Below, piece after piece: positions 1 to 15,382 of a DNA stretch of 17,115 bases. The DNA comes from a virus (Duplodnaviria > Heunggongvirae > Uroviricota > Caudoviricetes), in the IMG/VR virus record IMGVR_UViG_2529292883_000003, positions 1-17,115 of that record; one strand, given 5' to 3'. Positions within the stretch are counted from its first letter, which is position 1. Every line of letters starts with the position of its first letter. A model generated the notes under the pieces. That model was not told the origin of the DNA. It saw nothing but the letters and a program-made list of their open reading frames with translations, and did no database searches. The position numbers and the translations under genes are program-made.

Positions 1-405
1 CATATCCCATATGTAGTCGCCATTCAGCGCTGCCGCCCCCGGCGCACTGATTGCTGTTCCATCGACAAGACGCAATCTCTTTCCGCTTGTACAACCCGTA
101 ACTGCGGCGCGTACAGCAAGTGTTTGTGCGGCAAGTATGCCAAACCAGTCGGCGGCATTCCGCAGCCGCTTCAGGAGAGCCACGTCAGATAATGTTGCAA
201 CGTCATGGAGCTGAGCCCATGCAGTGACTTCACGTAATGACATCCCCCCGGGGCCGTAAGCCAGCCCCAGACGTAGCAGAGTTGCAGCATCACGAATTTC
301 GCGGCGGCGGGTTAGAGCCCCGGCATTACGTGCCGAAGTATCCAGTTCTTCGGGCTTACCAATATGGGCCAGAATTGCTGACCAGTTATCGTGAGAGTAA
401 TTCAT
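1..405 (-). CDS. insL: IS186 transposase, N-terminal ~135 codons (partial; apparent frameshift at the C5 run 36-40)
   Basis: Minus-strand translation from ATG 405-403 gives MNYSHDNWSAILAHIGKPEELDTSARNAGALTRRREIRDAATLLRLGLAYGPGGMSLREVTAWAQLHDVATLSDVALLKRLRNAADWFGILAAQTLAVRAAVTGCTSGKRLRLVDGTAISAP..., matching the IS186 transposase as I remember it. Not in the ORF track because the frame runs off the window edge. Confidence 0.85.
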   Translation of the reverse strand, partial: MNYSHDNWSAILAHIGKPEELDTSARNAGALTRRREIRDAATLLRLGLAYGPGGMSLREVTAWAQLHDVATLSDVALLKRLRNAADWFGILAAQTLAVRAAVTGCTSGKRLRLVDGTAISAPGAAALNGDYIWDM

Positions 406-460
406 CGGCACGTTAAATCATATCAGGCGTAATACCACAACCCTTAAGTTAGCGCTTATG
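1..460 (-). mobile_element. IS186 (IS4 family) end, continues beyond window start
   Basis: Transposase N-terminus recognised (see CDS 1-405), ~55 nt untranslated leader, and the minus-strand sequence CATAAGCGCTAACTTAAGGGTTG (plus 438-460) that I recall as the IS186 terminal repeat. Outer boundary at 460 is approximate and rests on memory of the IR. Confidence 0.7.
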
Positions 461-482
461 GGATTTCTCCCCGCTGGTCCTC

Positions 483-638
483 TTACTCCCCAAGTTCGTA
501 AGCTGTGAAGACAGCGACCTCCGTCTGGTCGGTTCGGATTCGTACCTCGCAGAGGTCTTTCCTCGTTACCAGTACCGTCACTATAACGATTAAACAGATG
601 ACGATCAGGGTGATTAACATCGCCTTTTGCTGCTTCAT
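483..638 (-). CDS. hok: Hok/Gef family type I toxin (HokD/RelF-like), 51 aa
   Basis: MKQQKAMLITLIVICLIVIVTVLVTRKDLCEVRIRTDQTEVAVFTAYELGE: one hydrophobic helix followed by the conserved RKxLCE..R....EVA.F.AYE Hok/Gef signature. Start ATG at 638-636, stop TAA at 485-483. Confidence 0.85.
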   Translation of the reverse strand: MKQQKAMLITLIVICLIVIVTVLVTRKDLCEVRIRTDQTEVAVFTAYELGE

Positions 639-695
639 AGCCCGCTTCTTCTTGCCTTTCAGCACGTAAGAGACTAACCTACGTTTGTAAGGCAT
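483..695 (-). CDS. mok: Mok: N-terminally extended frame sharing the hok stop, 70 aa
   Basis: ORF-track 70-aa frame (MPYKRRLVSYVLKGKKKRA + Hok) starting 57 nt upstream of hok in the same frame, as for chromosomal mok/hok pairs. Confidence 0.6.
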   Translation of the reverse strand: MPYKRRLVSYVLKGKKKRAMKQQKAMLITLIVICLIVIVTVLVTRKDLCEVRIRTDQTEVAVFTAYELGE

Positions 696-758
696 AGATT
701 GGGCCCCAGATTAATGTTAAGCCTCTTGCCGGATGCGTAATATCAACTGGGGTTTTTT
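687..758 (+). ncRNA. sok: putative Sok antisense RNA
   Basis: Plus-strand segment antisense to the mok start region, ending in CCCCAG...CTGGGG followed by TTTTTT (753-758), which looks like an intrinsic terminator. The 5' end is placed by analogy with known hok/sok loci, not seen directly. Confidence 0.35.
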
Positions 759-1241
759 CTATCTGCCTTTGATTTTCATGCCCAAGGCAGATAGCCTCAA
801 GCCCCCGCAGCCATACTATTTAACCCCCGTTACCTCGCCAATATGAAATCAATCAGAAAGGCGATCCATAAGAACAATAGCAAGACAATAAATTGCCACC
901 ACAGCCGCAATAGCCAACGCACACTTGAGAACCAGCACGACAACCTCCTGTATTGGACGTGCACCTGCCCTGATAAATATGAGGCTGTCTCGTCAGTGAT
1001 TCAATACAACTATTGGGTATAGTTTCTGTGATTTTGTTCTGTAGAAATGGAACACAACAACCAGTCACCACCAGCACTTCTTTAAATACGCTAAGTCCGA
1101 CGCAAGCTAACCTTCTAGTCCGCTTTGAGCGAGGAGCGGACCTGACATTGGGGTATGTCAATTTATGGGAGCAGGTCAGGGGCATTAATGCCCCCATATG
1201 GAATAAGTTTCACCTTGACATTAATAATGCTCTTGGGACAA

Positions 1242-2987
1242 TCAAAAACTTTGCTTTAGTGGTACTTCTCTTGACATGTGGATACCATCTTTTGAACGCC
1301 TGCGCTCTTCAAAATAGATAGCTAATGATAAATAGATTATTGAGTTTCTAGCTAATCCAATGAGTTGCATGAGCCTTGATTCAAATTGGCTTATTGGTAT
1401 TAATAGAGAGTGGGAAGATAGTTTTTCTTTTTCATAGATCTTTGATTTTAGATCTGTAAGTCTTAAACTCATCTTATTAACACCATCTTCGAGTTGTTGC
1501 GCTAAACAATTATCCCCATCTTTTTTTGCTTGCTTCATTTTTAATTTTTCATCCCGGATTTTATCTGGTAGTACATTAACTTCTTCTTGGATCTTTCTAA
1601 ATTCACCATCATTATAAGTATTATATGATGTTGCAAGTTCATAGCCAAAATCATCAACTATTTTTAATGAACGATGTTCCATGGCATTTCTAATCTCTGC
1701 AAATGCCACTGCATTTGGATCTAACCACTTTGTTGCTGAATCAGAGTCACCAACTTTACGGATATCTTTTAATATATAGAATAAAGCGTGAATGAAATGA
1801 TTGTCGCTATCTTTCAGCTTTTTATGTGGTTTCCATTTAGTATTATTACTTGTAAAGTCACGGAATAAATTATCTATACTGATTATTTTGTCATGTTTCA
1901 GATCGTTCAAATCAAAGAAGCGACTAATTAAATATGCTACTTTATCAAAAATTGAATATACTATTCTGAATGCTGACTTATACTGAGCAATCTTCAAGTT
2001 ATTAATTGAGTAAGTCATATCCTCAACGTGTTGATATGTTGAGTTGAATATATGAGGGTTATCATCAGGTATATCTTTTGAAGAAAAAATCAAGTACCGA
2101 GCATAACAGTAATCATTTTTTAATTCATCATAATTACCGTGATAAGATAATTCTTCAGACATGGTGAGAGAACTATTAAGCGATTGAACGAATGAGGGGA
2201 ATTCGAAAACATCCTGATAAGTAATCGGGTACTCGCAAGCATCATTCAAATCATTAAGAAAGAGTCTTTTACTAGCGCACCATTCTAAATAGTTTTTCTG
2301 TTTTCTACATGTGGTTTTTTCAGTGTATTCTTTAAAGTAATCGAAGTCCGATGTTTCGAATAACTCCTCGAACCATTTTTTAAAGTTGAATAATTTGCCG
2401 CCTTTCTCAAGTGGCACTCTTTGTTCAGGATATAGTTGATCAATATTCTCAAAACCTTTTTTCACAAGTTCATAAGCGATATAGTAATGATATTCTGAAT
2501 GTCCATTATCATAAAGTGAAAGCCCAAGAAAAATTTCATTATTGGCTTTTGCTATAATTGCAACGAGATTATTATCTATAGAAATAGCTTTATCATAGTG
2601 GGGAATGCAACATAACGTTCTACCTTGTGATGAAAGGCGATTAGCTAAATTTGTCTCAATCATAGACCTAAGACTATTATATGCATGAGTATTATTATCA
2701 TGTTCTCTCCAGTCTACTTTAGGTAGCGCATGTAAAGCTTTCCTGTAAAAGATGACCGATTTCATCAAATCATCTGAATACCACTCAGTTTTACGTGTTT
2801 CATAAAGTACAGAGTAACAATTTCCTAAGCAGTAAAGATAATGAGCCTCGTCTAATTGGTGAGTAAAGGTGAAATCCCGTTCTGTAAAACTCTCTATTAA
2901 TGAAGATAAAGAAACGTGATCACCTTTGATGATGTATTCATCCGCACGTTTACTAAACTCATCAAGTTTATCTTTTTCCAATAACAA
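1242..2987 (-). CDS. hypothetical protein, 581 aa, no family recognised (island cargo)
   Basis: Long uninterrupted minus-strand ORF in AT-rich DNA. TTG start at 2987-2985 sits 5 nt after a perfect AAGGAG (plus 2993-2998 is CTCCTT). No in-frame ATG nearby. Contains an R-x4-H motif (AEIRNAMEHRS) and TPR-like helices; both are weak motif-level hints. Confidence 0.6.
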   Translation of the reverse strand: MLLEKDKLDEFSKRADEYIIKGDHVSLSSLIESFTERDFTFTHQLDEAHYLYCLGNCYSVLYETRKTEWYSDDLMKSVIFYRKALHALPKVDWREHDNNTHAYNSLRSMIETNLANRLSSQGRTLCCIPHYDKAISIDNNLVAIIAKANNEIFLGLSLYDNGHSEYHYYIAYELVKKGFENIDQLYPEQRVPLEKGGKLFNFKKWFEELFETSDFDYFKEYTEKTTCRKQKNYLEWCASKRLFLNDLNDACEYPITYQDVFEFPSFVQSLNSSLTMSEELSYHGNYDELKNDYCYARYLIFSSKDIPDDNPHIFNSTYQHVEDMTYSINNLKIAQYKSAFRIVYSIFDKVAYLISRFFDLNDLKHDKIISIDNLFRDFTSNNTKWKPHKKLKDSDNHFIHALFYILKDIRKVGDSDSATKWLDPNAVAFAEIRNAMEHRSLKIVDDFGYELATSYNTYNDGEFRKIQEEVNVLPDKIRDEKLKMKQAKKDGDNCLAQQLEDGVNKMSLRLTDLKSKIYEKEKLSSHSLLIPISQFESRLMQLIGLARNSIIYLSLAIYFEERRRSKDGIHMSREVPLKQSF

Positions 2988-3212
2988 AGTGACTCCTTAA
3001 CTGTTCATACGAACTGAATGACAAGCTTCGATTTAAAACTAAACATATAAATGTACTATTTAATTATTTATTATATGTGGATTTGGTCGATAATGCTGAT
3101 CTAGTATTTAAGTTTAGGAGCATAAAAAGTGATCTACTCCTCACAATTTAACATAGCGCATGGGTTCAACTTCCGCTTCTGGCACAGGGCTGCTGTTGCA
3201 GCACTGACAACC

Positions 3213-3686
3213 TTAGACTTCAATCGATTCAGAGATCTCTAACGCATCATCGACTTCAATGCCCAGATAACGGACTGTGCTTTCCAGTTTCCTATGGCCC
3301 AACAGAAGTTGGATCACCCAAAGATTCTTGGTTTTCTTGTAGATCAGGTAAGGTTTTGTTCTTCTCATGGAGTGTGTGCTGTAAAGCGAAGCTTCGAGAC
3401 CAAGCTTTTCTACCCACCCATGAAAAATTCGGCTGTATTGCCGGGTTGATATGTGCCGGTTCGTTCCGATCCGAGACCGAAACAAGAAGTCTTTACTGTG
3501 CAAATTGCCAAGCTTTATCAATGCAGCAACAGCTTCTCTTGTCCCTTTGGTTATCTCAAATTGCACAGGGCTACCGATTTTCTGTTGCAGCACCATTACT
3601 CTGCTTGAAGCCGAGCTGCCATATGCAACATCAGATACTTTGAGGTTCACCAGATCACAGCCTCGTAGCTTACTGTCTAAGACCAT
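3213..3686 (-). pseudogene. small tyrosine recombinase (integrase family) remnant, N-terminally truncated
   Basis: 157-aa ORF with box I arginine (KLRGCDLVNLKVSDV) and the C-terminal HSMRRT...LLGHRKLESTVRY catalytic signature (R, HxxR, Y). The same frame stays open upstream to 3803 but is broken by TGA at 3746-3744, with no start codon upstream; only ~6 residues precede box I. Confidence 0.55.
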
Positions 3687-4017
3687 GTTGAACTGAGCTA
3701 AATCACGCGTTTTACCTTCCAGTTCAAGCCGGATTCGGCTCCCTCAGATATGAGATATCTGGAGTTGTCTTTTTTGGCCTATGATACGGTCTTTGTTCCA
3801 CTGTTACATGTTCATAATCAAATCTCCTGCAATGCTGGAGATTTGAGTACGGTTGTCCCTTATGAGCGAGTATTGGACATTGAGTTACTTGTATCAGGGG
3901 TGGTCAAAATATTGGCACTTAGCCATAAAGGTATTTACATCAATGATTTATGATCTTTCCTTAGCAAGATTGCTACTTTTTTGTGAAGTATGTTCATGTC
4001 AATAGTAGGTAATTAAA

Positions 4018-4047
4018 TTTACAAAATCGCGAATTAATGGTTATATA
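4018..4047 (+). promoter_or_regulatory. putative sigma70 promoter for the plus-strand island gene
   Basis: TTTACA (4018-4023), 17-nt spacer, TTATAT/TATATA (4041-4047), about 45 nt upstream of ATG 4090. By-eye match only. Confidence 0.3.
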
Positions 4048-4089
4048 TCCCCTATGGCTTGTTTTTTTAATACGAGGAATCAAACGGAT

Positions 4090-4413
4090 ATGGATAATAA
4101 TATTCTATTTATTTCATCAATTGAGCGGTTTAATGATTTCGAAGAGGTTGTTAGACGCTTTTTACAGCGAATGTTTAATGCAGATGCTTATATTACAAAT
4201 GGCCCTTATGACGGAGGCAAGGACGTCGTTTACTCAGTAAGAGGTCGTGAAATAAGAGAGGTAATACAGGTATCTATTATAAAAAAAGGTTTAGAAGATA
4301 AACTTGAAGAAGACTTAATCAAAACAGATGATTTAATTAAAAAATATAATTACCCTCCTGTATTGAATTTTTTTGGAGCCACAAAATATCTGAAAGCAAG
4401 CTTGAAGTTTTAA
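4090..4413 (+). CDS. Mrr-like (restriction-endonuclease fold) N-terminal ORF, 107 aa, probably the 5' part of a frame-disrupted gene
   Basis: MDNNILFISSIERFNDFEEVVRRFLQRMFNADAYITNGPYDGGKDVVYSVRGREIREVIQVSIIKKG... has the DGGxD core typical of Mrr-type PD-(D/E)xK nucleases. The expected Q-x-K lysine is not obvious (IQVS). GAGGAA lies 12 nt upstream of ATG 4090. The ORF-track start at 4054 is an in-frame extension. Confidence 0.5.
   Translation: MDNNILFISSIERFNDFEEVVRRFLQRMFNADAYITNGPYDGGKDVVYSVRGREIREVIQVSIIKKGLEDKLEEDLIKTDDLIKKYNYPPVLNFFGATKYLKASLKF
4368..4374 (+). repeat. T7 homopolymer at the frame junction between ORF 4090-4413 and ORF 4560-6359
   Basis: The downstream frame is open from 4350 (after TAA 4347-4349); the upstream frame closes at 4411-4413. 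The T7 run is the only homopolymer in the 4350-4410 overlap and fits the X XXY YYZ slippery pattern (T TTT TTT) in the upstream frame. Confidence 0.5.
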
Positions 4414-4559
4414 AAAGCAATGCCAGAAAAAATTATGGGATAACCCTCGAGTTTTATGACGCAAATAGAATATCTCAAAAAATCACCAATGATTATCCGG
4501 AGATATTAACCTTTCTTCTTGAGGAAGTTCACAATTATCAATCCTCTAAAAAGGATGAG

Positions 4560-6359
4560 TTGGACATAAAAGAAATAGCATTTTACGAATATCTGGTGTT
4601 AAGTAAAGATGCTGCCAATTTAAAGAATGTAATTATTGATTCATACATAGTTTCATTACTTACAGGTCAAGGGAAGTCAGAGCATGATTTAATCAATGAA
4701 ACCCAAATTCTTGGGGTACACAATGAAACTCTTAAAAATAGATTGTATCTTTTAAAGCGAGATAATCGAATTATCCTTGATGGAGATTTATACAGTCTGT
4801 CTGAGGTTGAAAGTAAGAGAATCAGGAATCTTGAGTTAAAAGAAATAGCCAAAAGGAATGAGGTTTTAACAATAATTGGTAATGCGACCTCAAAATACTT
4901 TAGTGAAAATATATCCACCGAGGTTCTTGACCTAATTAAGGAGGCTTATGCTGAGTCGGTCAATCTACAGCTTAATGAATTAAACTTCGAATCCCCAAGA
5001 AATCAAATTGTTAAAGGAATTATTAAACAACTGGAAAAATTGATAACTGAAAAAGGAAAAATAAACAACTCATTGTCTTCAAAATTAGCTAATGAGCTTG
5101 TTGAGTTATCTGGGAGAAATGAATATCTTTCAGACTATTGCTCATCAAGGCTATGCATAACTCTATTAAATCAAAAGAAACTTGAAAGATATATTGACAA
5201 TAAAACGTTTTTTTTATACCTAGATGCCCCAGTATTGATTCCATATCTTGTTGCATTAAGATACGATAAAATTTCTAACAGTGAAAAATCGATAAGCACT
5301 GTTAAAACGTTAAAGAAAATAGTATTTAACCTTAAAAACAGACACATTCGTGTAACCCAAGAACATCTTGAAGAAACAGTACGACATTTATTAAATGGAA
5401 TGAAAATTAGTTCTTTTGCCAATGATGAATTAGTTAGGAAGATAGGTAATTCTAAAAACGTATTTTTTAATACATATATAAATATTAAAAAAAGCAAACC
5501 TAGTAGTTACAATTTCGAAAATTTTTTAGAAGATTTTATTGGCTATGAAGATACATCTGGCTCTATCGATGCAAAGTTTTATAAACTAATTCGTTCAGTC
5601 TCTCAGTATTTAAATCTAAATAGAATTGAAGTTATTTCAACCTCAGTTTATCAGGAAGATAGAATCATTGAGGAAGTTGCCAGGAAGTTTTCTAGGCAAA
5701 TATCTGGTCCAAAAAAAAGAAATCCACGAACTATTAATAATGATATTTATGCTGCATTAACCTTATCTGATGACAGCATACACTGCGATGAAAAGGGAGT
5801 CGGTCAAATCCCTATGCTAATTACATGGGATGCAACTCAGCACACACTCAGGAATATAGTAAGACAAAAAGATAAATATAAAGAATGGTTGGTTTACACT
5901 CCCCAAAGAGCAATTGAAAGACTTTCAATGTTAGAAATGAAAATTGAGAGCTCCGCAATTAAAGATGGTGTTTTAGCAATTATTGATGAGGATTATTTCT
6001 TCAAGGAAAACGATTCAAATTTAATCGATACTCTGGCATTGCTAGTGAAAGATGATTCCCCTGACGCTGGCGCATTAACAACTTTGATAAATAAACTATC
6101 GCAAAGGGTAACCGAGGAGTCTTTAGATTCTCAAGATATTGAAAAAGAAGCATTCAATACTTTAAACGAGATTTTAGTATTTACTTACACTGAGTTTAAA
6201 GATAATTTTAGCCAGGTAAAAATTGTTTTCAGTGATGAAAAATATACCGACTCAATCTTTGAGATACTAACCTCAACACTTAAGCGACCTTTCGATGATT
6301 CTTCTAGAATAGAGTATAAAAATAAAATAGACGAAATAATTTCAGTTCACTTTGGTTGA
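4560..6359 (+). CDS. hypothetical protein, 599 aa as called (TTG start); likely C-terminal part of a ~755-aa nuclease-domain fusion
   Basis: Long ORF in AT-rich DNA. Its frame has no ATG, GTG or TTG between 4350 and the TTG at 4560, and no internal Met for ~275 codons. Weak AAGGA 4 nt before the TTG. No family recognised. Confidence 0.55.
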   Translation: MDIKEIAFYEYLVLSKDAANLKNVIIDSYIVSLLTGQGKSEHDLINETQILGVHNETLKNRLYLLKRDNRIILDGDLYSLSEVESKRIRNLELKEIAKRNEVLTIIGNATSKYFSENISTEVLDLIKEAYAESVNLQLNELNFESPRNQIVKGIIKQLEKLITEKGKINNSLSSKLANELVELSGRNEYLSDYCSSRLCITLLNQKKLERYIDNKTFFLYLDAPVLIPYLVALRYDKISNSEKSISTVKTLKKIVFNLKNRHIRVTQEHLEETVRHLLNGMKISSFANDELVRKIGNSKNVFFNTYINIKKSKPSSYNFENFLEDFIGYEDTSGSIDAKFYKLIRSVSQYLNLNRIEVISTSVYQEDRIIEEVARKFSRQISGPKKRNPRTINNDIYAALTLSDDSIHCDEKGVGQIPMLITWDATQHTLRNIVRQKDKYKEWLVYTPQRAIERLSMLEMKIESSAIKDGVLAIIDEDYFFKENDSNLIDTLALLVKDDSPDAGALTTLINKLSQRVTEESLDSQDIEKEAFNTLNEILVFTYTEFKDNFSQVKIVFSDEKYTDSIFEILTSTLKRPFDDSSRIEYKNKIDEIISVHFG

Positions 6360-6519
6360 CTGTTTGGGGAGAGGGTTCTCCCCAATTAAAGAACTTATTA
6401 ACAATATCGATAAAGTTGTGAACTGTTCCCCATGGATTGATGCAGATAGGTGCTATCAACATCCGCCTTTGGCACAAAGCGGACAACCACGCTAGCTCTA
6501 CCGACATGGCTTTTCCCAT
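6304..6519 (-). CDS. hypothetical small ORF immediately downstream of ydaV (ydaW position), C-terminus runs into the island boundary
   Basis: 71-aa ORF-track frame (MGKAMSVELAWLSALCQRRMLIAPICINPWGTVHNFIDIVNK...). The first ~45 codons lie in normal-GC DNA, the tail reads through the boundary hairpin. No convincing SD. Confidence 0.25.
   Translation of the reverse strand: MGKAMSVELAWLSALCQRRMLIAPICINPWGTVHNFIDIVNKFFNWGEPSPQTVNQSELKLFRLFYFYTLF
6364..6385 (+). terminator. hairpin just after the 599-aa ORF stop (possible terminator / island boundary)
   Basis: TTGGGGAGA-GGGT-TCTCCCCAA: 9-bp stem with 4-nt loop, 5 nt after TGA 6357-6359. No U-tract follows on either strand, so terminator function is uncertain. 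Confidence 0.3.
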
Positions 6520-6572
6520 TGCTTTAAGTGCGTCAAAAAACAGTCTCCATTAAAATTTCCTCCCGATAAAAA

Positions 6573-7319
6573 TTACTTCGCAGTTCCTGGCTGGACGACA
6601 TTCGGACGCCAGCTCTCCCAGTTAAAATTCACCCAGCGTCCGCCGTTCATGGTCATGCGATCCATAATCCGCTCGCCGAGCAATGTTTTCATCGCCTCAT
6701 AGTTCAGGTTTGTCAGCATTCCCACGCCGCGCATCGACGCTGTCCGGCGATCAACAATCTGGTGCAGTACCACCTGCTCGTTTTTCGTATCGCGCTGAAT
6801 ACCAATTTCATCAAGAACCAGCAGATCAACTTCGCACAGTTCCCGCAAAAATTTTTCGCCTGACTGCCCGTCGTCATAGCTGGCGTGCAGGGCGCTCATA
6901 ACATCAGCCACGGTAACCACAATCACTGTCTGACCGTCTTTCAGCAGGCGATTCCCGATAGCCGCCGCCAGATGGTTTTTTCCGGTACCAGGTTTTCCAC
7001 TGAACGCAAAATTTGTACACCCGACCATCAGTTCATCGGCGATGAATTTCGCCTGGCTCAACGCGTATCGCTGACCGTCGTTCTGCACCTGGTAATTCGA
7101 AAACGAGCATTTGCGGTGCAATGGCTGGATGCCAGAGCGATTCAGAATTTTTTCCACCCGCAACTGACGATTCTGACGGTTGATCTCCTCACAACGTTTC
7201 TGGCCTTCGGAAAGTTGCCACTCACGCCACTCCGCCACCGTCTTGAATGGCGCGGTTACATGTGACGGGGCCAGTCTGCGGATACGTTCAAGAACGCCGC
7301 CTGTCGCAATATTTTTCAT
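6573..7319 (-). CDS. ydaV: Rac prophage replication protein, DnaC/IstB-like helicase loader
   Basis: 248 aa; Walker A GKPGTGKNHLAAAIG; recognised as YdaV; SD-like GGGGG upstream of ATG 7319. Confidence 0.85.
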   Translation of the reverse strand: MKNIATGGVLERIRRLAPSHVTAPFKTVAEWREWQLSEGQKRCEEINRQNRQLRVEKILNRSGIQPLHRKCSFSNYQVQNDGQRYALSQAKFIADELMVGCTNFAFSGKPGTGKNHLAAAIGNRLLKDGQTVIVVTVADVMSALHASYDDGQSGEKFLRELCEVDLLVLDEIGIQRDTKNEQVVLHQIVDRRTASMRGVGMLTNLNYEAMKTLLGERIMDRMTMNGGRWVNFNWESWRPNVVQPGTAK

Positions 7320-7325
7320 GGTCAG

Positions 7326-8183
7326 TTACCCCCTGAAGCCTGGTGGGATCGCACTGTCCGGTAACGAAACGGTGTTAACCCGTCGGAGTAACGTCTCAGG
7401 TCGAACACCTTTCGGCGCGAACAAGCCCTGGTATTCGTTGGCGATGCTGTGTCGAATCACCTGCTCAGGTGAAAAACCCTGCTGGCGGAATTTTTCCAGC
7501 TCCCGTATCGCCCCGTTAGCGCCCTGCTCCGTTCGAATCGGTTTACGCAATGCCTGGCGAAATTCAACCCACTCACGCCAAAGCGAGAAAGAAATCCAGT
7601 TCGGCAAAGCAATATCCAGAGGGTCAAACTTTTTGATACCTAGATTCCCCCGGGGGGGATTTAGGGGGGGATCTGTTTTTAGATCTTTATCTGTATCTTT
7701 ATTAGTTGCCTTTGTGTTGACATCATGTTCAAACACCACTTCAACATCTGTTTGAACACCTGTTAAATTTCTCTCTTGTTTTGTTTGAACAACTGCTTCC
7801 TTTCTGCTTCTTCTGGCCTGAACAGATGCTTTTCCTGCGGCTGATTTTTTGGTTAATTTTTCCCTGACTGATGCCAGATCTTCCTCAATCCGAAGATGCA
7901 CCCATTCCTCGCCGTTATCGCAAAAAAACTCCTGCAAGGATGGTTCAACATCAGCCCATCGCTCGTTAGTCAGACGGGCAATTTTTGCCAGCCTGTTTTT
8001 AGGTATTGGCTTTCCTGTTTGCCAGTAATTGAACATCAGCAACAAATACGCACCATGCTCCTCTGCTGACAAATGCATGGTGTCAGCCAGGTAATCAGCT
8101 ATGTACAGTTGCATGTATGGTAATGCGGCCATAATTGCCCCGTATGATGCTGCCCGGTGGCTTAGAATAAGCACAAACAGCAT
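7326..8183 (-). CDS. ydaU: Rac prophage replication initiation protein (O-like)
   Basis: 285 aa, recognised as YdaU; stops 6 nt before the ydaV start (operon). Confidence 0.8.
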   Translation of the reverse strand: MLFVLILSHRAASYGAIMAALPYMQLYIADYLADTMHLSAEEHGAYLLLMFNYWQTGKPIPKNRLAKIARLTNERWADVEPSLQEFFCDNGEEWVHLRIEEDLASVREKLTKKSAAGKASVQARRSRKEAVVQTKQERNLTGVQTDVEVVFEHDVNTKATNKDTDKDLKTDPPLNPPRGNLGIKKFDPLDIALPNWISFSLWREWVEFRQALRKPIRTEQGANGAIRELEKFRQQGFSPEQVIRHSIANEYQGLFAPKGVRPETLLRRVNTVSLPDSAIPPGFRG

Positions 8184-8195
8184 GGAAACTTTTGC

Positions 8196-8618
8196 TTAAT
8201 GAACAATGACAGAATCGTCGGAAGACCCGCCGCCGCTGAAATGCGCTTTCCGGTAAACGGCCTGGACTGCATCATCATGCGCATCAATTGCCGTACTTAA
8301 CGCTTCCTGCGCCGCCAGTAATGCACGGCGTTCCAGGGTATCGAAGATGCAGAGTCGGTGACGCAGCTCGCGCGGAAGGATTGCCAGAATTGCAGGGATC
8401 AGTTTCTGAATTTTTTCCCTTTGCGCTTCCGTTTCACCTTTTAACCAACGGTGATAGATGTTCTGCTGATTATTCCAGTCCTTGCCTGGTACCAGGGGCA
8501 ATTCGCCGCCCCCCTGGCGCAGATATTCTTCAGTAATGGCATTGGCTACCCATGCCTGCCCTTTTTCGGCTGCCAGGGCTAACAACACTGACTCGATGTG
8601 CTCATGCTTGATTTTCAT
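8196..8618 (-). CDS. ydaT: Rac prophage protein YdaT
   Basis: 140 aa (MKIKHEHIESVLLALAAEKGQAWVANAITEEY...); start overlaps the ydaS stop (ATGA). Confidence 0.8.
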   Translation of the reverse strand: MKIKHEHIESVLLALAAEKGQAWVANAITEEYLRQGGGELPLVPGKDWNNQQNIYHRWLKGETEAQREKIQKLIPAILAILPRELRHRLCIFDTLERRALLAAQEALSTAIDAHDDAVQAVYRKAHFSGGGSSDDSVIVH

Positions 8619-8869
8619 GAATCAACTCCCATCAGCTTTTTCGTAGTAGTTTTATTTCTGCCAATAGTTAAAATTACATCGGCAGAAAATAATCCGTTTG
8701 ATGCATGAGCGATTTTTTCAGCGTAATTTGTTTCGCCGGTATATTCTGTGCGAGGCAATTTTCCGTTATCCATCCATTTGTAGATTGCTCTTTGGCTGAC
8801 ACCACAAATGTCGGCCACAACAGAAACGCGAACAGTTTTGATTACATCTTCAAGTGTTTTCTGGTTCAT
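8615..8869 (-). CDS. ydaS: Cro-like HTH regulator
   Basis: MNQKTLEDVIKTVRVSVVADICGVSQRAIYKWMDNGKLPRTEY... with an HTH. Start at ATG 8869-8867 chosen because GAGGGTGA precedes it; the ORF-track start at 8941 would lie 8 nt from the divergent racR start. Confidence 0.7.
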   Translation of the reverse strand: MNQKTLEDVIKTVRVSVVADICGVSQRAIYKWMDNGKLPRTEYTGETNYAEKIAHASNGLFSADVILTIGRNKTTTKKLMGVDS

Positions 8870-8948
8870 ATCACCCTCACAATGTGAACTTTGAGTACAT
8901 GCTATAACAGAACTGACAGTACATTCAAGAGCGAATATCATTGAACTT
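8870..8948. promoter_or_regulatory. divergent racR/ydaS promoter-operator region (OR-like)
   Basis: 79-bp gap between divergent starts containing two direct copies of GAACTnnnAGTACAT (8886-8900 and 8910-8924), 24 bp apart. Confidence 0.45.
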
Positions 8949-9368
8949 ATGGTTCATGAAGATAAAGCGCGTAAAGAGTTCGCCAGTAGGCTTGCGCTAG
9001 CCTGTGAAAACGCTGGTTATGAACAACATGGAAGGCAGGCAGAAATTGCCCGTCGAATGAAATTAACACCAAAAGCGGTTAGCAAATGGTTTAATGGCGA
9101 AACAATTCCTCGCCGAGAGAAATTAAGGGAATTAGCAACACTCATTGGAACAACACCAACCTATCTTTTGGGAGAGGATACAGAAGAAAGTGGACAGGTA
9201 CGTTTCTATCAGGAGTTAAATCCAAGACAAAAAATCATCATTGACCTTCTGGACGAGCTCCCTGACAGTGAGACAGATGAACTTTTAAAAACTCTTGAGG
9301 AGAAAAAACAGAAGTACAATGCAATTTACGAAGAGTTAGCACGAAAGAAAAAACAAAAAGCCTCTTAA
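8949..9368 (+). CDS. racR: prophage repressor, CI-like HTH protein
   Basis: 139-aa ORF divergent from ydaS with an HTH (LTPKAVSKWFNGETIP). Position matches racR; length differs from what I remember for K-12, so the allele may differ. Confidence 0.65.
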   Translation: MVHEDKARKEFASRLALACENAGYEQHGRQAEIARRMKLTPKAVSKWFNGETIPRREKLRELATLIGTTPTYLLGEDTEESGQVRFYQELNPRQKIIIDLLDELPDSETDELLKTLEEKKQKYNAIYEELARKKKQKAS

Positions 9369-9439
9369 ACCAGCATAAATCCGGTAGCGCCCCCCTCCGG
9401 GTTTGTGCTTCACTTTATCCCATCTCATTTTTTTACACA

Positions 9440-9490
9440 CAAAATGTACTTAAAGTACTTTACATCAATGAACACAAAGTACATCATATA
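9440..9490. promoter_or_regulatory. OL-like operator/promoter region downstream of racR
   Basis: ATGTACT (9444-9450, inverse of AGTACAT), 10-bp palindrome AAAGTACTTT (9452-9461) and AGTACAT (9478-9484): the same core as in the racR/ydaS gap. Confidence 0.35.
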
Positions 9491-9658
9491 CCTACCAACC
9501 CACCCCGCCCCACAGAACGCAGGGCAATACTTCGAGTTACCAGGCAGTGGTCAGGGGTTAAGTAGCCAGCCCGAGGCGTATGAACATGACGGCAGGGTTC
9601 AGATTTTGCAGTGCAGCAGGTTTCAGTTCCGCCACCCGGCGTTAAGGGGAGAGATAAG

Positions 9659-9793
9659 ATGGTGCATTACGAAGTAGTTCAGTATTTGATGGATTGTTGC
9701 GGTATCACTTACAACCAGGCTGTGCAGGCTTTACGCAGCAACGACTGGGATCTCTGGCAGGCAGAAGTCGCTATACGTAGCAACAAGATGTGA
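9659..9793 (+). CDS. ydaG: Rac prophage small protein YdaG, 44 aa
   Basis: MVHYEVVQYLMDCCGITYNQAVQALRSNDWDLWQAEVAIRSNKM preceded by GGGGAGAG; the ORF-track start at 9611 is an in-frame extension. Confidence 0.7.
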   Translation: MVHYEVVQYLMDCCGITYNQAVQALRSNDWDLWQAEVAIRSNKM

Positions 9794-9803
9794 GATTCGC
9801 AAA

Positions 9804-9959
9804 ATGCAAAAAATCGACCTCGGCAACAACGAATCCCTGGTGTGCGGCGTGTTCCCCAACCAGGATGGAACGTTCACTGCCATGACGTATACCAAAAGCA
9901 AAACATTTAAAACCGAAACTGGTGCGCGCCGATGGTTGGAGAAGCACACAGTAAGCTAA
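9804..9959 (+). CDS. ydaF: Rac prophage small protein YdaF, 51 aa
   Basis: MQKIDLGNNESLVCGVFPNQDGTFTAMTYTKSKTFKTETGARRWLEKHTVS; below the ORF-track length cut-off; stop overlaps the sieB stop by 4 nt (convergent). Confidence 0.65.
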   Translation: MQKIDLGNNESLVCGVFPNQDGTFTAMTYTKSKTFKTETGARRWLEKHTVS

Positions 9960-10444
9960 CGATTAAAACGTCTACTCCTGCTGTTCCAGAATAACTTCAT
10001 AAAATGGGAGTATTTTTCGGTGACGAGATAATAAGAACAGTTTGCGCTATCACTCTGATGTTGAATGATGCCCTTCCGTTCTAATTTTTTCATAACCGGG
10101 TTACGGCAAGGAGAAGTGATAATAAGATTTCCTGTTTTAAGGAAATCTTTAAATACAGCGATTTCTTTCTCAGATAAACGAAGCAATACTCGTTGCTCTG
10201 GTAGTAATGAATAATGCTTTTGAATATGTGCTCGCCATCTTGAGAAGGAAATGGCGACCACGAAAGAAAAGGCAAAAACGATAATCTGAAAGAGCCAAGG
10301 TATTTCAGTATAAGCATTGAATGCGACAGTAAACTCTTTCGGTATCAGCCAGAGAGTGAGACCAAAAATGATAATCGTATACATAAGTCTTTCGAGTGGC
10401 TCGTTAGCAAAAAGTTTCAACAATGGAGTAAATACATCCAACAT
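9956..10444 (-). CDS. sieB: superinfection exclusion protein B
   Basis: 162 aa from internal Met (MLDVFTPLLKLFANEPLERLMYTIIIFGLTLWLIPKEF...), membrane helices; the ORF-track frame is N-terminally over-extended. Confidence 0.8.
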   Translation of the reverse strand: MLDVFTPLLKLFANEPLERLMYTIIIFGLTLWLIPKEFTVAFNAYTEIPWLFQIIVFAFSFVVAISFSRWRAHIQKHYSLLPEQRVLLRLSEKEIAVFKDFLKTGNLIITSPCRNPVMKKLERKGIIQHQSDSANCSYYLVTEKYSHFMKLFWNSRSRRFNR

Positions 10445-10885
10445 ATCAATAACTCTCAACTGTAAGGGTATTGAAATGTTAACACAAGCTCTCGCTGTAG
10501 GGGTATAGCCGAGACCACCGAAGCCCGGAGGTGGTGAAATAAAACCGGGCACAACACGAAGGCGCATTTCCGATATCCATAAAGAGTCGGTCTTGTCTGT
10601 TAAATTTAAATGGTGGGAGTGCGCCTCCGGTTGTAAATAACGACATTGCTGTGTGTAGTCCTGGCGGCATCAGTTTTTTTCTTGAAGTTCGGCTGATGTC
10701 CGCCCTTTTTAAAGTGAATTTTGTGATGCGGTGAATGCGGCTAAGCGCACGTGGCACAGTTAAAAGTCATGTTAGTCCTTATTGGTTTGGGGGGGAAAGC
10801 CGACTGTAATTGTTAACTGGTTGCAGTCACCTGGAGGCACCAGGCACCGCATCAACAAAGTTCATTTGTAAAAATGGAGATAATT

Positions 10886-11107
10886 ATGATTGCACATCAC
10901 TTCGGAACTGATGAAATACCACGTCAGTGTGTGACTCCTGGCGATTATGTTCTTCATGAAGGCCGGACATATATTGCCTCGGCAAACAATATTAAAAAGC
11001 GAAAACTATATATTCGTAACCTGGCCACAAAAACATGCATTACTGACCGCATGATTAAAGTCTTCCTCGGTCGTGATGGGTTACCTGTAAAGGCGGAGTC
11101 ATGGTGA
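10886..11107 (+). CDS. kilR: Kil-like inhibitor of cell division
   Basis: 73 aa ([42 protein letters not shown]...), GGAGA 6 nt upstream of ATG 10886. Confidence 0.8.
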
Positions 11108-11277
11108 TGACTAAGAAAATAAAATGTGCTTACCACCTTTGCAAAAAAGACGTTGAAGAAAGCAAAGCTATTGAAAGAATGCTTCACTTCATGCACGGGA
11201 TTTTATCAAAAGACGAACCGAGAAAATATTGCAGTGAAGCTTGTGCCGAAAAAGACCAGATGGCACATGAACTTTAA
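11107..11277 (+). CDS. ydaE: small Cys-rich protein YdaE, 56 aa
   Basis: [56 protein letters not shown]; ATG overlaps the kilR stop (TGATG); below the ORF-track cut-off. Confidence 0.7.
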   Translation: MTKKIKCAYHLCKKDVEESKAIERMLHFMHGILSKDEPRKYCSEACAEKDQMAHEL

Positions 11278-11351
11278 TTAATTGACTATTCGAAACTGAA
11301 TTTATGCCAGAAATGGCAGGTATTCGCTCAACCTTAATTAAGGAGAAAAAC

Positions 11352-11627
11352 ATGATTACCAATTATGAAGCCACTGTTGTAACTACCGATGACATTGTTC
11401 ACGAGGTGAATCTGGAAGGAAAGCGCATTGGCTACGTAATTAAAACAGAAAATAAAGAAACCCCATTCACTGTGGTTGATATCGATGGTCCATCAGGCAA
11501 CGTAAAAACACTTGATGAAGGTGTCAAAAAAATGTGCCTGGTGCATATCGGAAAGAATCTGCCCGCAGAAAAAAAAGCCGAATTTCTGGCAACTCTAATT
11601 GCAATGAAATTAAAAGGTGAAATCTGA
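11352..11627 (+). CDS. racC: Rac prophage protein RacC, 91 aa
   Basis: MITNYEATVVTTDDIVHEVNLEGKRIGYVIKTENKETPF...; AGGAG 6 nt upstream of ATG 11352. Confidence 0.8.
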   Translation: MITNYEATVVTTDDIVHEVNLEGKRIGYVIKTENKETPFTVVDIDGPSGNVKTLDEGVKKMCLVHIGKNLPAEKKAEFLATLIAMKLKGEI

Positions 11628-11634
11628 AAGAAAT

Positions 11635-11655
11635 AGCCTGCGTATGGCGCAGGCT
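11635..11655 (+). other. stem-loop between racC and recE
   Basis: AGCCTGCG-TATGG-CGCAGGCT: perfect 8-bp stem, 5-nt loop, no U-tract. Confidence 0.35.
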
Positions 11656-11728
11656 ATGAACAGTGTGTATCCGGCAAGATCATTCACTGAACAAAACGAA
11701 TTTTAATCTGAGTTGAGGTTAAAAAACA

Positions 11729-14329
11729 ATGAGCACAAAACCACTCTTCCTGTTACGGAAAGCGAAAAAATCATCCGGTGAACCTGACGTCGTCCTGTGG
11801 GCAAGCAACGATTTTGAATCGACCTGTGCCACTCTGGACTACCTGATCGTTAAGTCAGGTAAAAAACTGAGCAGCTATTTTAAAGCTGTTGCCACGAATT
11901 TTCCTGTCGTTAATGACCTGCCCGCTGAAGGTGAGATCGATTTTACCTGGAGTGAACGCTATCAACTCAGCAAAGACTCCATGACATGGGAACTAAAACC
12001 GGGAGCAGCACCAGACAACGCTCACTATCAAGGCAATACCAACGTCAACGGCGAAGACATGACTGAGATTGAGGAGAATATGCTACTCCCAATTTCTGGC
12101 CAGGAACTGCCCATTCGTTGGCTTGCTCAACACGGCAGCGAAAAACCGGTAACGCACGTTTCACGCGACGGACTCCAGGCATTACACATTGCTCGGGCTG
12201 AAGAACTACCGGCTGTTACTGCCCTGGCTGTTTCCCACAAAACCAGCCTGCTCGACCCGCTGGAAATTCGCGAACTCCACAAACTGGTTCGTGACACTGA
12301 CAAAGTTTTCCCTAATCCTGGTAATTCAAACCTGGGACTGATAACTGCTTTTTTCGAAGCATACCTGAACGCTGACTACACCGATCGAGGACTGCTGACA
12401 AAAGAGTGGATGAAGGGTAATCGTGTTTCACACATCACTCGCACGGCTTCCGGTGCTAATGCTGGCGGCGGAAACCTCACCGATCGCGGCGAAGGTTTCG
12501 TACACGATCTGACGTCACTGGCGCGCGACGTAGCCACTGGCGTACTGGCCCGTTCAATGGATCTGGACATCTATAACCTTCATCCGGCACACGCTAAACG
12601 CATTGAGGAAATTATCGCTGAAAATAAACCGCCCTTTTCTGTTTTCCGCGACAAATTCATCACCATGCCTGGCGGGCTGGATTATTCCCGCGCCATCGTG
12701 GTTGCGTCCGTAAAAGAAGCACCAATTGGGATCGAGGTCATCCCCGCGCACGTCACTGAATATCTGAACAAAGTACTGACTGAAACCGATCATGCCAACC
12801 CTGATCCGGAAATCGTGGATATTGCCTGCGGTCGCTCCTCTGCCCCGATGCCGCAGCGAGTAACAGAAGAAGGAAAACAGGATGATGAAGAAAAACCGCA
12901 ACCATCTGGAACAACGGCAGTTGAACAGGGAGAGGCTGAAACAATGGAACCGGACGCAACTGAACATCATCAGGACACGCAGCCGCTGGATGCTCAGTCA
13001 CAGGTAAATTCTGTTGATGCGAAATATCAGGAACTGCGGGCAGAACTCCATGAAGCCCGGAAAAACATTCCATCAAAAAATCCTGTCGATGCCGATAAAT
13101 TGCTTGCAGCATCACGTGGTGAATTTGTTGACGGAATTAGCGACCCGAACGATCCGAAATGGGTAAACGGGATCCAGACTCGCGATTGTGTGTACCAGAA
13201 CCAGCCAGAAACGGAAAAAACCAGACCAGATATGAATCAACCTGAGCCAGTAGTGCAACAGGAACCGGAAATAGCCTGCAATGCCTGCGGCCAGACTGGC
13301 GGGGATAACTGCCCTGACTGTGGTGCGGTGATGGGCGACGCAACATACCAGGAAACATTCGATGAAGAGAGTCAGGTTGAAGCTAAGGAAAATGATCCGG
13401 AGGAAATGGAAGGCGCTGAACATCCGCACAATGAGAATGCTGGCAGCGATCCGCATCGCGATTGCAGTGATGAAACTGGCGAAGTCGCAGATCCCGTAAT
13501 CGTAGAAGACATAGAGCCAGGTATTTATTACGGAATTTCGAATGAGAATTACCACGCGGGTCCCGGTGTCAGTAAGTCTCAGCTCGATGACATTGCTGAT
13601 ACTCCGGCACTATATTTGTGGCGTAAAAATGCCCCCGTGGACACCACAAAGACAAAAACGCTCGATTTAGGAACCGCTTTCCACTGCCGGGTACTTGAAC
13701 CGGAAGAATTCAGTAACCGCTTTATCGTAGCACCTGAATTTAACCGCCGTACAAACGCCGGAAAAGAAGAAGAGAAAGCGTTTCTGATGGAATGCGCAAG
13801 CACAGGAAAAACAGTTATCACTGCGGAAGAAGGCCGGAAAATTGAACTCATGTATCAAAGCGTTATGGCTTTGCCGCTGGGGCAATGGCTTGTTGAAAGC
13901 GCCGGACACGCTGAATCATCAATTTACTGGGAAGATCCTGAAACAGGAATTTTGTGTCGGTGCCGTCCGGACAAAATTATCCCTGAATTTCACTGGATCA
14001 TGGACGTGAAAACTACGGCGGATATTCAACGATTCAAAACCGCTTATTACGACTACCGCTATCACGTTCAGGATGCATTCTACAGTGACGGTTATGAAGC
14101 ACAGTTTGGAGTGCAGCCAACTTTCGTTTTTCTGGTTGCCAGCACAACTATTGAATGCGGACGTTATCCGGTTGAAATTTTCATGATGGGCGAAGAAGCA
14201 AAACTGGCAGGTCAACAGGAATATCACCGCAATCTGCGAACCCTGTCTGACTGCCTGAATACCGATGAATGGCCAGCTATTAAGACATTATCACTGCCCC
14301 GCTGGGCTAAGGAATATGCAAATGACTAA
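11729..14329 (+). CDS. recE: exodeoxyribonuclease VIII (RecE)
   Basis: 866-aa ORF recognised as RecE ([41 protein letters not shown]...); GAGG upstream; stop overlaps the recT start. Confidence 0.9.
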
Positions 14330-15131
14330 GCAACCACCAATCGCAAAAGCCGATCTGCAAAAAACTCAGGGAAACCGTGCACCAGCAGCAGTTAAAAATA
14401 GCGACGTGATTAGTTTTATTAACCAGCCATCAATGAAAGAGCAACTGGCAGCAGCTCTTCCACGCCATATGACGGCTGAACGTATGATCCGTATCGCCAC
14501 CACAGAAATTCGTAAAGTTCCGGCGTTAGGAAACTGTGACACTATGAGTTTTGTCAGTGCGATCGTACAGTGTTCACAGCTCGGACTTGAGCCAGGTAGC
14601 GCCCTCGGTCATGCATATTTACTGCCTTTTGGTAATAAAAACGAAAAGAGCGGTAAAAAGAACGTTCAGCTAATCATTGGCTATCGCGGCATGATTGATC
14701 TGGCTCGCCGTTCTGGTCAAATCGCCAGCCTGTCAGCCCGTGTTGTCCGTGAAGGTGACGAGTTTAGCTTCGAATTTGGCCTTGATGAAAAGTTAATACA
14801 CCGCCCGGGAGAAAACGAAGATGCCCCGGTTACCCACGTCTATGCTGTCGCAAGACTGAAAGACGGAGGTACTCAGTTTGAAGTTATGACGCGCAAACAG
14901 ATTGAGCTGGTGCGCAGCCTGAGTAAAGCTGGTAATAACGGGCCGTGGGTAACTCACTGGGAAGAAATGGCAAAGAAAACGGCTATTCGTCGCCTGTTCA
15001 AATATCTGCCCGTATCAATTGAGATCCAGCGTGCAGTATCAATGGATGAAAAGGAACCACTGACAATCGATCCTGCAGATTCCTCTGTATTAACCGGGGA
15101 ATACAGTGTAATCGATAATTCAGAGGAATAA
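14322..15131 (+). CDS. recT: RecT single-strand annealing protein
   Basis: 269 aa from ATG 14322 ([32 protein letters not shown]...); the ORF-track start at 14265 is an in-frame extension inside recE. Confidence 0.9.
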
Positions 15132-15138
15132 TTCAGCC

Positions 15139-15175
15139 TGGCGGTGTAATACACCGCCAACTTGAAATATTTTTT
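15139..15175 (+). terminator. hairpin plus T-run after recT
   Basis: TGGCGGTG-TAATA-CACCGCCA (15139-15159) followed 10 nt later by TTTTTT (15170-15175); the spacing is long for a canonical intrinsic terminator. Confidence 0.3.
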
Positions 15176-15187
15176 ATGAGAAAAATT

Positions 15188-15382
15188 ATGAGATATGACA
15201 ATGTTAAACCATGTCCATTTTGTGGTTGTCCATCAGTAACGGTGAAAGCCATTTCAGGATATTACCGAGCGAAGTGTAACGGATGCGAATCCCGAACCGG
15301 TTATGGTGGAAGTGAAAAAGAAGCACTCGAAAGATGGAATAAACGAACCACTGGAAATAATAATGGAGGTGTTCATGTATAA
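15188..15382 (+). CDS. ralR: restriction alleviation protein Lar/RalR, 64 aa
   Basis: MRYDNVKPCPFCGCPSVTVKAISGYYRAKCNGCESRTGYGGSEKEALERWNKRTTGNNNGGVHV, Cys-rich. Confidence 0.8.
   Translation: MRYDNVKPCPFCGCPSVTVKAISGYYRAKCNGCESRTGYGGSEKEALERWNKRTTGNNNGGVHV

Follow-up and report, generated by a model that had tools for sequence, protein, structure and literature searches.

Engineered recombinase-mediated cassette exchange makes use of heterospecific lox/FRT pairs, in which common arms are combined with incompatible crossover regions, and this arrangement favours the replacement of a cassette over its excision or inversion. We know of no described natural counterpart. The pdif sites of Acinetobacter plasmids are of the 11-6-11 XerC/XerD type and are acted on by the host Xer system, and cassette arrays without an integron integrase are known as CALINs. 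Sedentary chromosomal integrons carry anti-phage cassettes (bioRxiv 10.1101/2024.07.02.601686). In the present study an island in a Rac-type prophage was compared with these systems. It lies on a stretch of 17,115 nucleotides (positions 1 to 17,115 of IMG/VR virus record IMGVR_UViG_2529292883_000003, Caudoviricetes), called the window below, and contains two large genes on either side of the pseudogene of a small tyrosine recombinase. This island is probably a two-cassette instance of a site-specific-recombination platform that occupies the slot between hok and the replication gene of a Rac-type prophage and carries candidate defence genes.

The island and its parts are delimited by four sites of 24 bp (Table 1), which had not been spotted in an earlier reading of the same DNA made from the letters alone (the sequence-only reading). 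The sites follow the pattern GTCCGCT-N10-AGCGGAC, that is, two inverted 7-bp half-sites around a 10-bp spacer; judged by its sequence, this is the layout of a tyrosine-recombinase core site. In the inner B' site the left half-site is replaced by a terminator-like hairpin of the recombinase gene (approximately 3187-3204). The outer edges of the island match a 36-nt inverted repeat that was found independently (1105-1140 / 6462-6497). When the window was aligned with L002, an unrelated prophage of the lambdoid kind with the same hok flank, only three conserved blocks were obtained: the flank up to position 1140, positions 3169-3882 and positions 6462-6502. The recombinase block started at 3169 in the comparison with L002 and at 3167 in that with the island L013, and it ended at 3882 and 3870, respectively. 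On the right side the 41-nt block 6462-6502 was the sole homology with L002 and with a further prophage, L012. Both prophages have the same flank and other cargo, and both diverge from the window inside the sites, on the left after TTGAGCGA and on the right after GTGCCAA. In L012 the site pair brackets a two-gene cargo, and no recombinase is present. L013, a non-lambdoid island located beside IS100 and genes for dynamin-like and patatin proteins, has the same site pair and the recombinase together with different, divergently oriented cargo.

A strict site model was run on 147 fetched recombinase loci (1.84 Mb), and shuffled DNA served as the control. The model detected 126 sites, compared with 1 in shuffled DNA, and 117 of them were co-oriented with the recombinase gene. 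Two types were distinguished by their spacers, A (..TCGCTCA..) and B (..GTGCCAG..), and 19 of the 20 close pairs consisted of an A followed by a B with starts 39-42 nt apart. The consensus of A and that of reverse-complemented B differ only at position 11 (C in 93% versus G in 89%) and position 14 (T in 93% versus A in 87%), a contrast that is partly circular because the spacer was used for typing; this circularity does not extend to the strict order of A before B or to the fixed positions. When the recombinase gene points to the right, the elements follow each other as B, cargo, A', recombinase, B', cargo, A, and the arrays often continue beyond the final A with more A-18-B junctions and cargo. 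Every cassette spans a B site to an A site, the junctions between cassettes are imperfect palindromes of about 66 bp composed of A, 18 nt and B, and the recombinase gene itself lies within one such A-B junction. We have considerable confidence that this cassette architecture is real.

The inner sites are tied to the recombinase gene. A' is located about 62 nt before the recombinase start in all 21 distinct intact loci examined, and it is constant from TCGCTCAT-AAGGGAC inward and variable outward. B' is located about 21 nt past the stop in all 20 distinct intact loci; it consists of the hairpin followed by TGTGCCA, two bases (nn) and AGCGGAC, and is constant up to TGTGCCA and variable beyond. 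The outer half-sites of A' and B', plus the adjoining 2-3 bases, vary with the neighbouring cargo. In these patterns (21 and 20 sequences) constant sequence gives way to variable sequence at the edges of the central 7 bp or so, which is where tyrosine recombinases cut. Loci with recombinases of 55-65% identity (L086, L092, L117, L125 and others) have half-sites of the form G(T/G)CCGCT...AGCGG(A/C)C at the same positions relative to the gene, and these distant homologs, from Pseudomonas and Burkholderiales, have other spacers, for example TTTGGGTCGA and TTTTGGCCGG. Since the half-sites are kept with different spacers, the comparison suggests that sites and recombinase have co-evolved. The 24-bp sites are likely substrates of the small recombinase.

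A looser site model gave 270 matches, compared with 15 in shuffled sequence, and delimited 77 B...A units, 0.4-6.8 kb in length, each of which holds between one and three genes that may face in either direction. The 103 open reading frames (ORFs) of at least 150 aa in these units formed 82 clusters, 78 representatives of which were scanned. Their cargo included HerA and SIR2 (three of each; the SIR2-HerA defence pair), WYL, HNH, AbiGi and Peptidase_U49, which we take to be the Lit abortive-infection protease. DUF4238, HEPN_LA2681, Sel1 and thymidine-hypermodification enzymes were also present, and most of the cargo was without annotation. In the Qin prophage of the K-12 lineage a B...A pair (L014 7887-8901) surrounds flxA beside the tiny integrase remnant ydfW, with an orientation opposite to the usual one. 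In Qin, relBE and ydfV fill the remainder of this hok-proximal slot.

The recombinase remnant of the window matched Pfam Phage_integrase PF00589 (E=7.5e-14) and PHROG 216 (E=1.4e-25). The catalytic R, HxxR and H..Y are still readable in its translation as LRGCDL, HSMRR and GHRKLESTVRY, and the intact 200-aa orthologs in L002 and L013 showed 91-92% DNA identity to the pseudogene. The sequence-only reading had recognised a decayed tyrosine recombinase between the two genes, which was borne out. This gene is not a stray degraded integrase; it characterises a conserved cassette module bounded by sites, as its signature gene. Of 5426 complete E. coli genomes, 858 contained the module (16%, about 1 in 6), with 22 places on plasmids. 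Its neighbours in E. coli were hypothetical, dynamin-like or CBS-domain genes in prophages, on one plasmid and in chromosomal islands. Species-representative genomes of Gamma- and Betaproteobacteria yielded at least 547 matches with 60-98% identity, 67 viral contigs were also found, and homologs with 50-59% identity are carried by alphaproteobacterial plasmids. The family as a whole was found in prophages, plasmids and islands.

The inverted repeat at the start of the recombinase gene (Table 1) forms a stem whose positions covary across homologs that are only 60% identical, e.g., ACUCAAAUCUCC/GGAGAUUUGAGU and GUCCUCC/GGAGGAC. The Shine-Dalgarno sequence was paired in 26 of 27 leaders, compared with 63% when the 5' part was shuffled as a control; the energy z-scores had a median of -4.7. 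The repeat was also present upstream of the recombinase starts in L015-L161. The modelled pairing suggests that a leader RNA hairpin hides the ribosome-binding site of the recombinase (translational occlusion). Such a hairpin would hold translation low or block activation by read-through transcripts, by analogy with IS10, in which translation is subject to fold-back inhibition. Two other assignments were rejected. A FimB/E-type switch that flips a promoter between the two genes does not agree with sites that bound whole genes and recur in arrays, and the two genes have no short invertible segment between them; the name of the IntKX group belongs to integrases from integrative and conjugative elements (ICEs).

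With integrons the platform has in common a tyrosine recombinase, short cassette arrays, imperfect-palindrome junctions of about 60-70 bp and diverse, often defence-related cargo, and its arrays can outlast the recombinase (L012) as in CALINs. It differs in the size of the recombinase, which is 200 aa versus about 320 aa for IntI with its specific insertion; the remnant reached 45.8 bits on the XerA/integron-integrase model NF040815, the cutoff of which is 220. The sites are of the GTCCGCT-N10-AGCGGAC form and not attC sites with R''/L''-L'/R' boxes, the junction consensus has no GTTRRRY core, and the recombinase gene lies inside a junction with cassettes on both sides and genes facing either way. 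Since 100-250 nt of upstream sequence are kept, the cassette genes are probably self-expressed and not transcribed from a common Pc promoter. Cassettes of classical integrons are co-oriented, mostly lack a promoter and follow attI/Pc. The pdif modules are also accessory modules between inverted site pairs that occur in many contexts with interchangeable cargo (PMC9455709 / bioRxiv 10.1101/2022.01.12.475240; PMC9771954). In contrast to them, the arms of the sites described here measure 7 bp and the spacer 10 bp, and the array includes a small recombinase gene of its own.

In the B site the 7 bp at the centre, GTGCCA(A/G), equal the sfx core GTGCCAA of the R64 shufflon (PMC4176322, PMC11852207), for example at window 6461-6484 and L002 9506-9529. 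In both cases several inverted sites separate DNA segments, and an asymmetric core sets the orientation. The right arm of sfx is TCCGGTACGTGG, whereas that of the sites described here is AGCGGAC, and Rci inverts 3'-end segments of one gene, whereas the sites described here bound whole genes. The shared core prompted a search for a relationship with Rci, which was rejected: tblastn with the small recombinase returned no IncI/Rci genes at E<=1e-3, and no Rci model was among the NCBIfam matches. Rci is also considerably longer than the recombinase of about 200 aa. The resemblance to engineered cassette exchange lies in a cassette between two sites with shared arms and mismatched crossover regions; the engineered version is a laboratory design, whereas natural exchange would be deduced here from comparative anatomy. 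No published description of the recombinase-and-site module was found in the literature reached, which leaves out most subscription journals.

A mechanism can be proposed from this anatomy. Recombinase dimers would bind the symmetric half-sites and exchange strands in the spacer, the asymmetric centre of which would set the polarity. A and B are inverted relative to each other, with differences at two central positions, and productive recombination between both sites of the same cassette would therefore not be expected. Recombination of B with B and of A with A between co-resident arrays would replace a whole cassette by double crossover, comparable to recombinase-mediated cassette exchange. 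Recombination of A with A (or B with B) within one array would yield a circle with one cargo and one junction, which could be re-inserted at any junction in the manner of integrons. The rare inverted cassettes (9 of 126 sites; flxA in K-12) suggest occasional A x B events. In the window the platform is frozen, as the recombinase is a pseudogene. The platform is probably a site-specific-recombination cassette system, and we infer that it would serve as an integron-like or cassette-exchange vehicle for defence genes. That a recombinase of about 200 aa with heterospecific inverted A/B sites may shuffle anti-phage modules of one or a few genes between lambdoid prophages, genomic islands and plasmids across the Proteobacteria, by natural cassette exchange and by excision and insertion as in integrons, is put forward here as a tentative proposal.

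The product of the intact gene of cassette A, a protein of 581 aa, matched the Pfam domain HEPN_LA2681 (PF18733) with residues 277-446 (E=5.4e-32; 111.2 bits versus a cutoff of 27). Its RefSeq name is 'LA2681 family HEPN domain-containing protein', and PF18733 was present in all 120 listed homologs. The Rx4H motif R433-N-A-M-E-H438 (Rx4-6H of HEPN RNases) was invariant among 28 homologs with 47-91% identity. Residues 1 to about 220 were modelled as paired helices or helical repeats with a predicted local distance difference test score (pLDDT) of 65-95, and the best Foldseek matches of this region were tetratricopeptide repeat (TPR) domains with a probability of 1.0 and weak E-values of about 7e-3. 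The AlphaFold2 model was not used for the HEPN domain, where the pLDDT was below 50 (residues 237-346 and 407-459). LA2681 has been listed as 'fused to TPR', with a conserved catalytic motif, among predicted RNase toxins in defence (Anantharaman 2013, Table 1, PMC3710099), and the TPR-like N-terminus agrees with this fusion. In its HEPN domain, Rx4-6H motif, TPR fusion and mobile-element setting beside defence genes the protein resembles the HEPN effectors AbiD/F, AbiJ, AbiU2, AbiV, RloC/PrrC, ApeA and Tha as well as LA2681 (PMC3710099). It is unlike them in that the LA2681 family is known by prediction; no experimental work on this family was found in the literature beyond the 2013 paper.

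The HEPN gene is thus named as a new member of a known family, and its product is likely an RNase, by prediction, and a candidate abortive-infection effector. The TPR-like domain would sense a phage product and free the RNase activity, leading to abortive infection. One HEPN_LA2681 homolog was located in an Edwardsiella prophage and one in an ICE-like region of Pseudomonas, with a GmrSD gene near each of them; another one was located in an ssrA-linked island of a different E. coli strain. The homologs at L003, L126, L166 and L167 occurred without the second cargo gene of the island, and the HEPN cassettes of the window and L126 showed only about 65% nucleotide identity. A weak site-like 24-mer with 3 mismatches was present at L167 8776-8799, downstream of a HEPN homolog outside any array.

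The gene of cassette B codes for a protein of 756 aa and is disrupted in the window by a -1 frameshift in a run of T residues, seven in the window versus eight in E. coli O155 strain NWU_3. With one T added, the window ORF was identical in 756 of 756 residues to WP_047674170.1 of that strain. The sequence-only reading had described a protein of about 599 aa (probably about 755 aa) with a TTG start; the corresponding ORF 4560-6359 is the 3' part of the frameshifted gene and not a gene of its own. The fold layout comprises a Mrr-like PD-(D/E)xK region (residues 1-135), a winged helix (about 190-240), a PIN-like region (about 370-620) and a helical C-terminus. The N-terminus shows the alpha-beta-beta-beta-alpha-beta core fold of PD-(D/E)xK/Mrr-like nucleases, with D41, D45, Q60 and K71 as invariant residues; in the D...(D/E/Q)xK motif the lysine would be at Q+2, which is not the case here. 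The protein did not match Pfam Mrr_cat, and nothing significant was obtained in Pfam, NCBIfam, PADLOC, PHROGs or a profile search against PDB sequences. It belongs to an unnamed family, and its nuclease architecture can be recognised. Nucleic acid would be bound by the winged helix and cut by the PIN-like and/or the Mrr-like domain.

Homologs of the 756-aa protein were found as solitary insertions in five unrelated contexts: among metabolic genes in Pectobacterium, beside cI of a P2/186-like prophage in Pantoea, downstream of genes for a two-component pair (sensor kinase and response regulator) in Enterobacter, and between core genes both in Pseudomonas and in Vibrio. They never adjoined a HEPN_LA2681 gene and had no antitoxin-like partner, and the two cargo genes are independent on this evidence. 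Seven relatives of 810-840 aa (P0261, P0263, P0274, P0287, P0288, P0296 and P0300) matched the profile only from about position 155 and hence carry another N-terminal domain than the Mrr-like one; two of them had a sub-threshold match to DUF4062. This pattern hints at N-terminal module swapping in the family. Weak site-like 24-mers (3 mismatches) were also seen downstream of 756-aa homologs outside arrays (L004 10796-10819 and L005 3634-3657). These and the one in L167 lie about 40-525 nt downstream of the homologs; they may be what is left of earlier cassette boundaries, or may match by chance.

The inactivating lesions differ among three nearly identical island copies. In the window the HEPN gene is intact and the 756-aa gene is frameshifted (T8 to T7). 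NWU_3 has a stop codon in place of W93 of the HEPN gene (window position 2709) and an intact 756-aa gene. The same W93stop is present in L123, together with an A7-to-A6 frameshift of the 756-aa gene in the A7 run 5487-5493. Recurrent independent knock-outs fit costly or toxic genes. The lesions could result from counter-selection of costly genes, from homopolymer phase variation or from sequencing error. With the recombinase dead and the 756-aa gene broken, the HEPN gene is the only one potentially functional in the window.

Table 1. Features of the window, with positions counted from its first letter
Feature	Position	Strand	Remarks
Island core	1118-6484		between hok/IS421 and ydaV
Outer A-type site	1118-1141	-	GTCCGCTTTGAGCGAGGAGCGGAC; exact pattern match; left island boundary, end of cassette A
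581-aa protein gene	1242-2987	-	intact; TTG start preceded by a strong TAAGGAG Shine-Dalgarno sequence; TPR-like N-terminal region and HEPN_LA2681 domain
Inner B'-type site	3170-3193	-	reverse complement ...CAGCCCTGTGCCAGAAGCGGAAG; boundary of cassette A and recombinase module
Tyrosine recombinase pseudogene, about 200 aa	3213-3815	-	stop codons in frame at codons 4 and 24; apart from these, colinear with the intact orthologs of 200 aa
17-bp inverted repeat	3815-3849	-	overlaps recombinase Shine-Dalgarno sequence and start codon; pairs anti-Shine-Dalgarno segment with Shine-Dalgarno sequence
Inner A'-type site, degenerate	3855-3878	-	reverse complement GTCCAATACTCGCTCATAAGGGAC; boundary of recombinase module and cassette B
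756-aa protein gene, disrupted	4090-6359	+	ATG at 4090; -1 frameshift in T7 run 4368-4374
Outer B-type site	6461-6484	-	ATCCGCCTTTGGCACAAAGCGGAC on + strand; pattern with 2 mismatches; right boundary, start of cassette B
IS421 element	1-470		left end of window, abuts hok region
hok	483-638	-	left flank of island
ydaV	6573-7319	-	right flank of island
SieB superinfection-exclusion protein, 203 aa	9956-10567	-	Pfam SieB, E=1e-30
68-aa ORF	15176-15382	+	restriction-alleviation protein Lar, Pfam E=3.5e-14

The window could be aligned with the annotated Rac locus of NWU_3 at 98.7-98.8% identity. The RefSeq annotation of that locus (intR, xisR, ralR, recT, recE, racC, kilR and ydaSTUV) identifies the prophage as Rac-type, in agreement with the sequence-only reading, which had also placed the island correctly between hok with its insertion sequence (IS) element and ydaV. 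In NWU_3 the gene order is intR-xisR-ralR-recT-recE-racC-kilR, further on ydaS/T/U/V, next the island and last hok. The IS element at the left end of the window is IS421, which we take to be an isoform of IS186; it was 99.8% identical to copies in 2207 genomes. The homology of the NWU_3 prophage begins only at position 460, so the DNA on the left side of hok has been either replaced or interrupted by IS421. The whole island was present in 3 of the 5426 E. coli genomes and the hok flank in 4884; a common slot is therefore rarely occupied by this island, and the variability of this slot that had been supposed earlier was confirmed.

The G+C content was 0.27-0.36 over about 1250-6300, versus 0.45-0.54 in both flanks. 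The low values were confined to the two cargo segments (0.328 for 1142-3169 and 0.318 for 3879-6460), and the recombinase module 3170-3878 had a value of 0.457, similar to the 0.47-0.49 of the flanks. The description of the island as AT-rich was thus correct for the cargo and not for the module between. It also holds that neither gene is a lambdoid function and that both are foreign, as their AT-richness indicates, and the 581-aa ORF with its TTG start was called correctly. Both large ORFs had been considered unplaceable; this remains so for the 756-aa protein, which has no family assignment, but not for the HEPN protein. In a promoter/terminator scan, promoter-like sites were fewer in the island than in shuffled sequence, so that the scan was uninformative on expression.

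Some further genes of the prophage were noted. SieB is located in a segment of about 550 nt without an aligned counterpart in NWU_3 (window 9938-10490 versus L001 20938-20981); this segment is a further small spot of variation, within the prophage's immunity region. The Lar-matching ORF belongs to the ralR region, where it is located between recT (upstream) and xisR/intR (downstream), and represents an anti-restriction function of the same prophage. RecE and RecT are also encoded in the window.

This last point bears on the explanation that competes most directly with site-specific recombination. The sites might be conserved linkers or boundaries, or terminator or insulator palindromes, at which general or phage-encoded homologous recombination (RecET, Red) swaps modules, with the recombinase gene as a frequent passenger. 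Both the A-18-B junction (about 66 bp) and the right block of 41 nt have sufficient length for recombination of this type, for which the prophage has its own enzymes, and L012 has the sites with different cargo and no recombinase. Breakpoints at the site would be expected from homologous exchange as well, because half-sites are common to all cassettes, and no recombination product was observed. Such linkers do not account for the canonical tyrosine-recombinase layout with inverted half-sites and an asymmetric spacer, for the distances from the start and stop of the recombinase gene, which are fixed in all intact loci, for the co-orientation of 117 of 126 sites, or for the sharp constant/variable boundary at the edges of the central 7 bp. 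Moreover, the sites move with the gene into unrelated contexts (the L013 island; the recombinase module on a plasmid), and half-sites with different spacers are recognisable in recombinase homologs of only 60-65% identity. We therefore consider homologous exchange between passive linkers rather unlikely. Several observations nevertheless weigh against a cassette system of the kind proposed. No identical cassette was found at two different array positions, the window cassettes were seen elsewhere only in the same island (L123) and as site-less homologs, and no excised circle and no exchanged or inverted cassette within one strain was observed. The partial circularity of the A/B contrast belongs here as well, as do the likely false cassettes admitted by the loose model (ArsB, MFS, IS66) and the fact that the recombinase and one cargo gene are broken in the window.

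As regards the cargo, the question is whether it acts against phages. The alternatives would be modules for selfish addiction or toxins, genes of benefit to the prophage itself (e.g., host RNA/DNA turnover at induction) or factors for anti-plasmid activity or competition, and we regard them as unlikely. They would agree with the outcome of the defence-system finder check, in which neither cargo protein matched any model of PADLOC-DB v2 (2023, later systems being outside its coverage) at E<=0.1, and with LA2681 literature in which nothing experimental was found beyond the 2013 prediction. They would also agree with thymidine-hypermodification genes and transporters in some cassettes and with repeated inactivation, which shows cost and not benefit; the homopolymer frameshifts could also be sequencing errors. 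Against these alternatives, TPR plus HEPN and Mrr-like plus PIN-like combinations are typical of abortive-infection effectors (PMC3710099), established defence genes occur in sister cassettes, HEPN homologs neighbour GmrSD within mobile elements, and the 756-aa gene inserts alone without an antitoxin-like partner. The abortive-infection-type domains, the GmrSD neighbours and the defence genes of sister cassettes support the anti-phage reading, and we lean towards it. The earlier expectation of defence cargo was upheld in the variable accessory slot and the abortive-infection-type domain hallmarks; it has to be qualified in that one gene belongs to a described family and the other is frameshifted here. 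The sequence-only reading had further suggested one undescribed system around the decayed recombinase. A two-gene system, with the HEPN and 756-aa genes diverging from a regulatory region, would agree with their adjacent and divergent position in all five island copies examined (window, three NWU genomes and L123). It is nevertheless highly improbable: the genes are in separate site-bounded cassettes, each occurs without the other elsewhere (the four HEPN homologs and the five contexts given above), and each was knocked out separately in near-identical islands. The island thus holds two independent single-gene cassettes.

If the sites are true substrates of the recombinase, the cassettes would represent a second integron-like route by which bacteria and phages gather and swap accessory genes, and the variability of the hok-to-replication slot in lambdoid prophages would have a mechanistic account. 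The compact recombinase with its naturally heterospecific sites might then also be of use for genome engineering. The window yields two candidate single-gene defence proteins with candidate catalytic residues. Beyond these, the rule that a cassette extends from a B site to an A site would allow hundreds of mostly unannotated cassettes, enriched in defence genes, to be harvested, and these would form a catalogue of new defence genes that includes the HEPN_LA2681 and Mrr/PIN proteins.

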